Shown one piece after another: positions 26,128-47,365 of a DNA stretch of 64,000 bases; positions within the stretch are counted from its first letter, which is position 1, and each line of letters begins with the position of its first letter. The stretch spans positions 22,562 through 86,561 of the forward strand of contig JAYTOX010000058.1 in NCBI GenBank assembly GCA_043747595.1. The letters are read 5' to 3'. Source of the stretch: Bacteroidota bacterium (lineage in GTDB: Bacteria > Bacteroidota > Bacteroidia > AKYH767-A > 2013-40CM-41-45). The notes under the pieces were generated by a model. That model was not told the DNA's origin, did not search any database, and was given only the letters and a program-made list of their open reading frames with translations. Made by a program: the position numbers and the translations under genes.

Positions 26128-26413
26128 CCGCTTCGACGTTCCGATGGCTATCGGAATCGTCCGTTGCATTAAACGTACGAATGATTCAATCTTTTACAAA
26201 ATCTGTATATCCCACTGCTGGCGACGAATTTGTCACTCTCACCGCTTCGACGATTCCGATAGCCATCGGAATCGTCGAAGCAGCGCAAAATTTATTCCCA
26301 GCAGAATTACTTTAATTATGTCCGACTGAAAGTTCAATAGCACAATCTGTCGCACAACATTCAACCAAGCAACTCCGCTTCGACGTTCCGATGGCTATCG
26401 GAATCGTCCGTTG
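26128..26413. repeat. REP-like palindromic repeat cluster (3 copies of GCTTCGACGTTCCGATGGCTATCGGAATCGTCCGTTG; middle copy inverted and a perfect 16-bp-stem palindrome)
   Basis: Copies lie at 26128-26166, 26242-26285 and 26385-26413. The same REP flanks the RAYT at 46.3-47.2 kb, and the conserved ~80-bp spacer is also shared. Confidence 0.75.
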
Positions 26414-26585
26414 TTATTGAGTAGTGAATATTCATGCACTTTTCAAGACTCATCAAAAACCGCCATTAACCAAACGTTCCCTTTTTAGTAGTTTTTGATT
26501 CTTGACTTCCCTTTTTTTGACTTTATTAAACGCTCTTGCTTATTGCTCTTTTTTCCTATCTTGCGCCCTTCTTGTACATATTACA

Positions 26586-45449: not shown

Positions 45450-46004
45450 TCACTCCATCTTTATCAATCTCTTTCTAAAAATATTTTTATCAGAAATTGC
45501 TTCGATAAAATAATTGCCCGAAGGAAGAAAACCAACATCAATCGTTTCATTTCCATTTACTTTTTTGGAATAAACTAGCGCTCCTAATTCATTGTACAAT
45601 TTTAATAAAATGTTTATTGGATAAACCGAATGAACCGACAATTCTTTCGTAATTGGATTCGGGTAAAATTGAATAGACTTATCATCAGATTCCTGTTCTT
45701 GAATTCCCGTTGAAAGTGAATCGCAAATACTTCCTATGACCGGGCCAAGGTTGTAGTTGACCATGTTTGGTAAACTTTGAATTGTCCGACCATTTCCTAA
45801 ATCAAAATAAGATTGTTGGTAATTGCAATTTACTCCCAAATTATCAGGAGTTAAAATTACATCCATGTGGTGAGTGTAATAAGTATTTGAAAAGGGCCCT
45901 TGGAAATTATCTCCCTTAGTTAAATAAATTCGATCATCAGGGCCTAATAGTATTTCTCCGCTAACGACGGATTTGCCACTCCCACTGCTTCGACGTTCCG
46001 ATAG
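45450..46004 (-). pseudogene. remnant of a T9SS cargo gene (CTD only) truncated at a REP/RAYT insertion
   Basis: The ORF ends with a T9SS CTD (IQFYPNPITKELSV...GNYFIEAISDKNIFRKRLIKME). It lacks a signal peptide and a functional domain. The upstream open frame runs into REP copy 45985-46023 and stops there. Confidence 0.4.
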
Positions 46005-46293
46005 CTATCGGAATCGTCCGTTGCATTAATAGTAAAACAGATTCAAGCTTGTACAAAATCTGTAAATCCCGCCGCGGACATTCGTCCGCAATAAATAACT
46101 CAACGCTTTTCCTTAGTGATTAAATTTTAAAATAGTTACTCTCATTCCTTGCTAGCGACGGAAATTGTAACTCCAACTGCTTCGACATTCCGATACCTGA
46201 TGCGACCAACTTCACTCAAACTTTTACTATTATCCAATAAAATAAATCCCCAGACTGCTTCGACGTTCCGATAGCTATCGGAATCGTCCATTG
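45985..46293. repeat. REP cluster (3 copies, one degenerate) with conserved spacer and second GTGGATATTCATCCAC hairpin
   Basis: CTGCTTCGACGTTCCGATAGCTATCGGAATCGTCCGTTG is present at 45985-46023 and 46255-46293. A degenerate copy lies at 46178-46208. Confidence 0.75.
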
Positions 46294-47205
46294 TTTTAAG
46301 TCGTGGATATTCATCCACTATTCAAAGCTCATCGTCTTACAAATAACAATTAAATTTGATAAGGTGTAATCATGTATTAAAAAAATTCCTGCTCGACACG
46401 GTAGTAACAGGCGGTGTAAGACAATCAATTTCTAGAACATTAGGTAGGCCATAGTAATTACGAGCCGAGCTAAATAAGTAATCCTGTTCATTGTAAACAA
46501 TTTTATCTACTACCGGATTTCGGTGGATATAATTCAGTTTCTGCCATGTTACCCGTTCGGTGTACAGTTCAATTGCATGATTTTTATCTTGCCAAATTTT
46601 ATGGTTTCTGTTTTTGGGATGTATTTTACCGGCATAAGCAAATTTGTCCAGTAGCCATTCCCTGCGACTCTCCGCTTCGTTCTCAATTACAAGAACTGCA
46701 TTTTTTGAGGTATGCCGTTTGAAATCCCTTACTACATGGTCGAGATCGAACGGCATTTTAGTGTTGGCTATTAGGTGCAAGTGACTTGGCATTAAACACC
46801 AGCCGAAAATATTTAGCCCTTTATTTTCTTGGCAATAGTTCAATGAGTCAACGATGAGTTGTTTTTGGTTTACACGAGTAAAAAGATCGATCCAATCAAC
46901 AACTGTCATCGTCATGAAATAAGTTTTGTCTTTGCGAATGTTATAATGAAGCCCTCTTGACATGATAAAATTAATTTTGTCAAAAATAATAGTAAGCAAT
47001 TCGCCGATCAATGATCATTTCTGTTTCAACCTTATAATTTCCATCTTTAATTAGTGAAATTGGCTGGCAAAGGTTTTTTAAAAGTGTAGCGATTGCTTCG
47101 AACGAACTGATGTATGCATTTAAATACGATGAGCTTTGAAGAGTGGATGAACATCCACAGCTAAAATACAACGGACGATTCCGATAGCTATCGGAACGTC
47201 GAAGC
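46255..47205 (-). mobile_element. REP-RAYT-REP unit (domesticated IS200-like transposase with flanking REP hairpins in inverted orientation)
   Basis: The architecture is read directly from the sequence. It matches the canonical RAYT/REP organisation. Confidence 0.6.
46370..47011 (-). CDS. REP-associated tyrosine transposase (RAYT; IS200/IS605-like HUH Y1 transposase)
   Basis: The HUH motif is CLMPSHLHLIA and the catalytic-Tyr block is YIHRNPVVDKIV. The gene is flanked by inverted REP copies (46255-46293 and 47169-47205). The true start may be the internal Met at 46963. Confidence 0.7.
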   Translation of the reverse strand: MIGELLTIIFDKINFIMSRGLHYNIRKDKTYFMTMTVVDWIDLFTRVNQKQLIVDSLNYCQENKGLNIFGWCLMPSHLHLIANTKMPFDLDHVVRDFKRHTSKNAVLVIENEAESRREWLLDKFAYAGKIHPKNRNHKIWQDKNHAIELYTERVTWQKLNYIHRNPVVDKIVYNEQDYLFSSARNYYGLPNVLEIDCLTPPVTTVSSRNFFNT

Positions 47206-47365
47206 GACGCAAGATTTATCAGCTTTGAGATTGCTTCGCACGAATAGATGTACGTGTACAAATACGATGAGCTTTGAAGGGTGGATGAATATCCACAGTT
47301 AAATACGACGGACGAATGTTCATCATAGCAAGCTCACCAATCACAACTTACCTCTCACTAAAAAT
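47040..47365. repeat. REP copy (inverted) + tandemly duplicated ~115-bp unit containing AGTGGATGAAyATCCAC hairpin + degenerate family A tail
   Basis: The block GATTGCTTCG.ACGAA..GATGTA....AATACGATGAGCTTTGAAG.GTGGATGAA.ATCCACAG occurs twice. CTCACCAATCACAACTTACCTCTCAC lies at 47331-47360. Confidence 0.55.

Follow-up and report, generated by a model that had tools for sequence, protein, structure and literature searches.

A REP-associated tyrosine transposase between inverted two-hairpin repeats in a Bacteroidota genome

The transposase gene and its setting

Within a 64,000-nucleotide (nt) stretch of a Bacteroidota bacterium genome (contig JAYTOX010000058.1; hereafter, the window), a gene for a REP-associated tyrosine transposase (RAYT, or TnpA_REP; REP, repetitive extragenic palindrome) lies on the minus strand between inverted copies of a hairpin-forming repeat, and the same repeat recurs without a transposase gene at 26.1-26.4 kb. 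The gene, the repeat modules around it and the second cluster are given below, with the evidence for each in brackets.

46370..46963, minus strand: RAYT coding sequence, intact, 197 residues (NF047646, Pfam Y1_Tnp, homologue alignment, Foldseek)
47068..47205, minus strand: inner upstream module (nhmmer module profile, E=1.6e-29; DNA fold)
47211..47328, minus strand: outer upstream module (direct repeat D1, 89 nt at 81%; nhmmer, E=6.4e-29)
46257..46338, plus strand: downstream module, inverted relative to the upstream pair (inverted repeats I1, I3 and I4)
45956..46198, plus strand: distal REP doublet (92% identical to the related locus L051 across 243 nt)
26130..26439, plus strand: RAYT-free REP cluster (37-mer, core and hp2 matches; DNA fold)

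A sequence-only reading of the window, made before the present analysis and without database searches, had picked out the minus-strand open reading frame (ORF) 46370..47011 as a RAYT from the motifs SHLHLIA and YIHRNPV. The ORF and both motifs are present. Translation probably begins at the ATG at 46963 and yields 197 residues, the modal length among homologues. The histidine-hydrophobic-histidine (HUH) motif corresponds to H61-L-H63 and the catalytic tyrosine to Tyr145, with WQ at residues 140-141 and SS at residues 165-166. When the protein was aligned with 36 homologues (identity down to 55%), H61, H63, W140, Q141, H147, N149, P150, S165 and S166 were invariant, and Y145 was nearly so. Homologues in this alignment read NHLH and either YIHQNP or YIHNNP at the positions where the window reads SHLH and YIHRNP, the N of NHLH being found in the more distant ones.

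The assignment to the RAYT family is backed by the NCBIfam equivalog model NF047646 (REP-associated tyrosine transposase, REP_Tyr_transpos). The protein passed it with 92 bits (cut-off 80), in an alignment that spans its residues 11-165 and positions 8-146 of the 146 in the model. It barely passed Pfam Y1_Tnp (23.9; cut-off 23) and failed the IS200 model NF033573 (14.9 vs. a cut-off of 55). An AlphaFold model built from the homologue alignment (pLDDT 80, pTM 0.77) has the HUH/Y1 fold, whose absence the sequence-only reading had named as one possible refutation. The first-ranked Foldseek match in the PDB was 4er8_A, the E. coli RAYT in complex with a REP hairpin (E=1.8e-5, prob 1.00, TM 0.56/0.66), followed by the TnpA proteins of ISDra2, IS608 and IS200, of the IS200/IS605 type. 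A phmmer search of the protein against PDB sequences gave no match, so its kinship to 4ER8 is visible at the level of the fold alone.

The family is large, with 2150 database clusters, most of them from Bacteroidia metagenomes, and the Joint Genome Institute (JGI) annotates the homologues as 'REP element-mobilizing transposase RayT'. The window holds one copy of the gene. About 20 nt 5' of its ATG, within 46964-46995 on the minus strand, stands TATTTTTG, which fits the Bacteroidetes -7 promoter consensus (TAnnTTTG). The RAYT may have a promoter of its own, 3' of the module array.

Two hairpins in one repeat module

The inverted 37-bp REP copies that the sequence-only reading had placed around the gene were recovered at 46257-46293 and 47169-47205. 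This 37-mer (GCTTCGACGTTCCGATAGCTATCGGAATCGTCCGTTG) is exact at 45987(+) and 47169(-), and has one mismatch at 46257(+), 26130(+) and 26377(+); it had zero matches across 100 shuffles. Its 18-nt core occurs in six copies in the window and in none in the shuffles. The inverted likeness of the two RAYT flanks reaches ~82 nt (46257-46338 on the plus strand vs. 47123-47205 on the minus strand), and the 37-mer is only one part of the full repeat unit, a composite module of ~125-138 nt. From one end to the other, the module consists of a GCTT foot, an imperfect hairpin 1, a linker of ~8-10 nt, a second hairpin (hp2), a conserved AAAGCTCATCGT block and a tail ending in CGAAGCAATC. The sequence of hp2 (GTGGATATTCATCCAC; GTGGAT-N4-ATCCAC), which is found at 46303, 47143 and 47281 around the RAYT, is better conserved than that of hairpin 1. 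As single-stranded DNA, the repeat hairpins fold better than shuffled sequences (z between −4 and −8.9). The copies are all extragenic; each of the two clusters in the window starts 75-100 nt past a stop codon.

Hairpin 1 exists in two types. Type B, a 24-nt REP (GCTTCGACGGACATTCGTCCGTTG), stands at corresponding positions in close relatives and is built as GCTT-CGACGGAC-ATTC-GTCCGTTG. Type A, the 37-nt form, differs from it solely by an 18-bp palindrome (TTCCGATAGCTATCGGAA) that replaces the five loop-side bases GACAT. The type-A REP of the window thus derives from the shorter, 24-nt REP found in this lineage.

The modules around the gene combine these parts in different ways. In the inner upstream module, a type-A REP (47169-47205) is joined to hp2 (47143-47158), the AAAGCTCATCGT block and a tail whose CGAAGCAATC end lies at 47091-47100. 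The outer upstream module, which has hp2 at 47281-47296 and a degenerate hairpin 1 at 47303-47320, stands in tandem with the inner one, head to tail, at a spacing of 138 nt. The downstream module consists of a type-A REP (46257-46293), hp2 (46303-46318) and then the AAAGCTCATCGT block. In the distal doublet, a 5' extension (45956-45986) leads into a type-A REP (45987-46023) and a conserved spacer, S1 (46024-46072). Next come a short hairpin resembling type B (GCGGACATTCGTCCGC, 46074-46089), another 5' extension and, last, a REP that is truncated (46176-46198). The S1 spacer is also found 3' of the REP at 26130 and in the related locus L014.

The cluster at 26 kb, which has no RAYT, has a cytochrome c peroxidase gene on one side and a gene for a DUF3098 protein on the other. 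The sequence-only reading had named the peroxidase correctly (it is of the CCP_MauG di-haem type) and had counted three REPs and three second hairpins behind it. The three REPs are present: one at 26130-26166 with S1, a palindromic, fused one at 26244-26281 and one at 26377-26413. The second hairpin was found there once, in a degenerate form (GTGAATATTCATGCAC, 26424-26439). The copy at 26244-26281 is palindromic as described, with a stem of 17 bp on folding rather than 16 bp. Because its right half runs into the 5' flank otherwise seen, in reverse complement, this palindrome resembles two inverted REPs fused head to head. The related locus L014 (JANLPR01) is syntenic with the window over 19.9-26.3 kb at 90-95% identity and shares the peroxidase gene and the first REP. 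Its orthologous cluster comprises two REPs, the second of which has the normal form at the site of the palindromic fusion in the window. When window 26244-26300 is set against positions 1400-1547 of this relative (95% identical), divergence starts inside the second REP hairpin, and the genes 3' of the cluster are DUF3098, UppP and TruB in the window vs. a secreted protein in L014.

Turnover and occurrence of the repeats among relatives

Through the neighbouring glycosyltransferase gene, an orthologous locus (GT2 / RAYT / type IX secretion system (T9SS)-tail protein / MeaB) was found in three relatives, L051, L052 and L055. In these, the RAYT DNA is 97.3% identical and the flanks are 91-94% identical, and the RAYT is conserved at least as well as the neighbouring genes. 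Between GT2 and the RAYT, the metagenome assemblies, in which tandem repeats can collapse, show one module in L052, two in tandem in the window, three in L055 and five in L051. Matching positions among the close relatives carry hairpin 1 of type A or type B, the types being swapped, and several short contigs stop exactly at a repeat start. Module numbers from one to five, hairpin swaps and an adjacent deletion among near-identical relatives show that the repeats are dynamic. These dynamics fit RAYT catalysis, slippage or recombination alike and do not tell them apart.

The deletion lies at the edge of the REP cluster. At 45450-45985 on the minus strand, the window has an ORF that is the C-terminal remnant (Por_Secre_tail) of a T9SS-sorted protein; its open frame extends into the REP hairpin. 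At the L051 locus, the T9SS-tail protein has 504 residues, and the window is without ~1.2-1.4 kb right where the cluster begins. We considered the truncated ORF as the other half of the L014 gene 3' of the REP cluster, as would follow from an inversion between the two REP loci, and rejected this since the two are paralogues with 31% identity. In addition, a unique 54-nt segment that lies between the proximal REP and the doublet in the window (46196-46249) stands beyond the doublet in L051 (8490-8543), so the 243-nt doublet has switched sides relative to the segment.

In more distant relatives, RAYT loci at 86% (L044), 76% (L045), 70% (L061/L062) and 64% (L058) amino acid identity occupy other genomic contexts, and in all of them the RAYT is flanked by inverted modules of foot, hairpin 1 and hp2. 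Across lineages, all eight pairs of hairpin 1 are kept in every sequence, three of the eight have changed on both sides, and a G.T is invariant at the second pair. In slid controls, pairing drops to 25-47%. This covariation backs the predicted structure, and we regard it as supportive rather than strong because only three independent lineages contribute to it. A second 197-residue gene in L044 was tried as a further RAYT and rejected, as it is not one.

Modules also stand without a RAYT in the related metagenome-assembled genomes (MAGs) L004, L007, L010, L013 and L014, so that the repetition proposed by the sequence-only reading is seen both at 26.1-26.4 kb and outside the window. A scan of 185,579 species genomes with the REP core returned 14 loci, only eight of them family-true, using the type-A pattern, type B being the commoner REP; the loci with family flanks came from four uncultured 'Bacteroidota bacterium' MAGs. 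In a scan of metagenomes with the REP core, none of the 29 matches carried family flanks.

The JANOVM01 MAG has an intact RAYT and, elsewhere, a pseudogene that is interrupted by REP-like hairpins. With a mutual identity of 72%, the two copies are not recent duplicates. In the pseudogene (L009, 5635-6214, minus strand), a REP-like hairpin (TTCCGATAATTATCGGAA) replaces the region of the catalytic-tyrosine motif, and there are more insertions and a stop. The insertion of REPs into RAYT genes has been reported as typical of RAYT subclass 2.4, not of 2.6. At L005, 6865-6921, a 19-residue remnant of a RAYT C-terminus sits directly beside a REP and hp2 module and suggests a RAYT locus of which almost all has been erased.

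A third, GC-rich hairpin (GCCTGCC...GGCAGGC) occurs in L005 (6780-6810), L007 (6142-6170), L009 (5545-5575 and 5880-5910) and L044 (7272-7316). It is nested in the hp2 loop at three loci and also lies inside the L009 RAYT pseudogene; in L044 it bears the same foot (GCTTCGACG). The lineage seems to use one foot with several interchangeable hairpins.

Outside the family, the 23-mer TTCCGATAGCTATCGGAATCGTC was found, either exactly or as the same pair of arms around a different loop, in unrelated Bacteroidota with quite different flanks (L001, L011, L026 and L043 in Crocinitomicaceae; L006, L012, L015 and L029 in Paludibacter). In Crocinitomicaceae it sits within a longer hairpin, TTTGTAACGACGG...TCGTCGTTACAAA, and by a rough count it is commoner in unrelated Bacteroidota than expected by chance. 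Finally, L045 (MAG JADKEM01) has a tandem array of 7-nt units (TTATGAG, GTTATGA-like) at 1767-1956, upstream of a small gene. It is matched by an inverted array at a distance of 25 nt and has no relation to the REPs.

Interpretation and comparison with known systems

Taken together, the locus is very probably a REPtron, that is, a single, intact and vertically inherited RAYT of the HUH/Y1 type, bracketed by inverted cognate repeats. RAYTs of the Bacteroidetes have already been catalogued, as subclass 2.6 by Quentin et al., 2018 (PMC6006769) and as Group 5 by Bertels et al., 2017 (PMC5581495), and it is to this class that the gene probably belongs. The sequence-only reading, in which RAYT/REP systems were poorly documented in Bacteroidota, was right in that they are thinly documented and wrong if taken to mean that they are undocumented.

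Several observations weigh against the REPtron interpretation. The HUH motif of the window reads SHLH, unlike the NH[LIV]H published for subclass 2.6, and the literature searched holds no activity data for any subclass 2.6 enzyme. There are only two REP loci in the 64 kb, and family-true loci were few in the scan of 185,579 species genomes with the type-A pattern. The differences in module number come from metagenome assemblies, in which tandem repeats can collapse. Moreover, in one related MAG the RAYT family occupies different loci, and a pseudogene is among these copies, so the gene moves or is lost over longer times.

There is a rival explanation, in which the gene and its inverted ends form an autonomous insertion sequence (IS) of the IS200/IS605 type that transposes whole, and the dispersed hairpins are solo ends or derivatives resembling miniature inverted-repeat transposable elements (MITEs). 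Movement of the whole unit over long times is evident. In favour of this explanation, RAYT units with the same flanks occupy unrelated contexts in distant MAGs (L044, L009, L045 and L058), an intact and a decayed copy share one MAG, and most homologue contigs are shorter than 2 kb, as expected of repeats. Yet the window has one copy in 64 kb and no near-identical copies, the JANOVM01 pair is too divergent to be a recent duplication, and three relatives carry the 97.3% identical gene at the same locus within flanks of 91-94% identity. The protein itself points away from such an element, given its failure against the IS200 model and a tyrosine motif of the RAYT type, YxxxN (N149), rather than YxxxQ. 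There is no tnpB, and the flanks are inverted repeats, whereas IS200/IS605 elements are without inverted ends. We therefore regard an autonomous IS as improbable.

Still less probable is that the hairpins are regulatory or terminator structures of the host that happen to lie beside a transposase relic, with changes in copy number due only to slippage or assembly artefacts. In line with such structures, all copies are extragenic and both clusters begin soon after a stop codon. Short type-B REPs in relatives do precede a T-rich run (TTGTTTTTT), and slippage alone can alter tandem arrays without an enzyme. However, no terminator-like site was scored at any copy in the window, and there were zero Rfam matches. 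An incidental neighbour would not be expected to keep a two-hairpin module with co-varying stems inverted around the RAYT down to 64% identity, and the RAYT is no relic, being intact and at least as well conserved as the genes next to it.

For the REPtron, E. coli TnpA_REP and the TnpA proteins of IS608 and ISDra2 serve as the mechanistic template. By analogy with these enzymes (PMC6006769), the RAYT would bind the hairpin in its folded state, together with the foot, on single-stranded DNA, the HUH histidines would hold a metal ion, and Tyr145 would cleave beside the hairpin, after which the strand would be rejoined. As an outcome, REP modules without a gene, among them those at 26.1-26.4 kb, would be spread or rearranged, and the RAYT gene would stay in place as a single copy. 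More tentatively, the two-hairpin module of ~125 nt, with its variable hairpin 1 and conserved hp2, might serve subclass 2.6 RAYTs as their true substrate and be amplifying now, so that arrays, swaps and deletion would be products of RAYT catalysis and not of slippage. We consider this possible but rather unlikely. If it were true, the locus would offer a natural system for working out how the Bacteroidota class of RAYTs functions.

Almost all that is understood about RAYTs and REPs comes from Proteobacteria, and the Bacteroidota class has merely been catalogued, its repeats being called 'atypical'. The locus and its relatives provide a clean anatomy of the class, with a conserved foot, a co-varying hairpin 1 with a fixed G.T, a conserved hp2 and natural variants at one orthologous site. 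This anatomy can be used for the design of binding and cleavage assays and for the annotation of repeats in Bacteroidota MAGs, whose assemblies these modules break. The general picture of RAYTs is unchanged.

Among characterized systems, the closest structural match is E. coli TnpA_REP (YafM; PDB 4ER8), with which the window RAYT shares the HUH/Y1 fold and the arrangement of a single gene between inverted REPs. This enzyme, with its REPs and bacterial interspersed mosaic elements (BIMEs), is reported by Ton-Hoang, 2012, and Messing, 2012, as cited in PMC6006769. Like E. coli BIMEs, the repeats studied here combine REPs and linkers in mosaic tandem clusters of variable copy number. The two proteins have 19% sequence identity; the window protein is ~30 residues longer and has an extra helix (101-114) and a C-terminal extension, and its repeats have a GCTT rather than a GTAG foot and a second conserved hairpin.

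Long inverted repeats with two self-complementary tracts are also found in TIRtrons, whose RAYT-like genes (TIRYTs) lie between 'double palindromic TIRs' (terminal inverted repeats; Di Nocera et al., 2013; PMC3733652), and there, too, relatives of the repeats occur elsewhere as singles, dimers or clusters. In contrast to the present case, the published TIRtrons are from Proteobacteria and Acidobacteria. The same study describes a superfamily of CGTC-tagged REPs, reported without a transposase, with an 8-9-bp stem that opens with A/T pairs, a 4-5-nt loop and an unpaired terminal CGTC. The type-A hairpin is only loosely similar: its stem starts with TT/AA, its loop has 4 nt and a CGTC lies next to it, but this CGTC is paired with an upstream GACG instead of forming an unpaired tag. 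Likewise short and non-autonomous are the REPINs (Bertels and Rainey, 2011; PMC3116915), which are believed to depend for their mobility on a RAYT that is single-copy and inherited vertically. A REPIN, however, consists of two inverted REPs that are separated by a short spacer and form one long hairpin, whereas the unit in the window has two different hairpins. The REPs at 26130, 26377, 45987 and 46257 are on the same strand, the upstream modules run head to tail, and the sole inverted REP fusion in the window is that at 26244-26281.

The nearest relatives remain the RAYTs of subclass 2.6 / Group 5, on which a search for newer literature returned nothing relevant. The published signature of subclass 2.6 comprises NH[LIV]H, WQ, YIH[QN]NP and a C-terminal SS (PMC6006769), that of subclass 2.4 a YIxNNP motif without SS. 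The motifs of the window RAYT fit subclass 2.6 better than 2.4, and together with the build of the REP they favour a placement in 2.6, from which the S of SHLH deviates. Shared with this class are the Bacteroidota host, WQ, YIH-x-NP, a C-terminal extension with SS and a length of ~180-200 residues. In PMC6006769, 'atypical secondary structures' are said to flank subclass 2.6 genes and to have further copies in the rest of the genome, and the flanking hairpins of the window likewise recur away from the gene. The REPs tabulated for the subclass combine a GCTN foot with an 8-10-bp stem and a loop of 3-4 nt, as in GCTGGCGCGAGCATATGCTCGTGCC (Table S1 of PMC6006769), and the type-B REP agrees with them in all three and in having a stem mismatch close to the foot. 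The window differs from the table, which has single hairpins only, in that its flanks are two-hairpin modules of ~82-136 nt, partly in tandem, and in the extra 18-bp palindrome of its 37-nt REP. The locus adds a clear, if ordinary, member to a class that had been catalogued for Bacteroidota before, and its repeat anatomy is somewhat better resolved here than in the literature.

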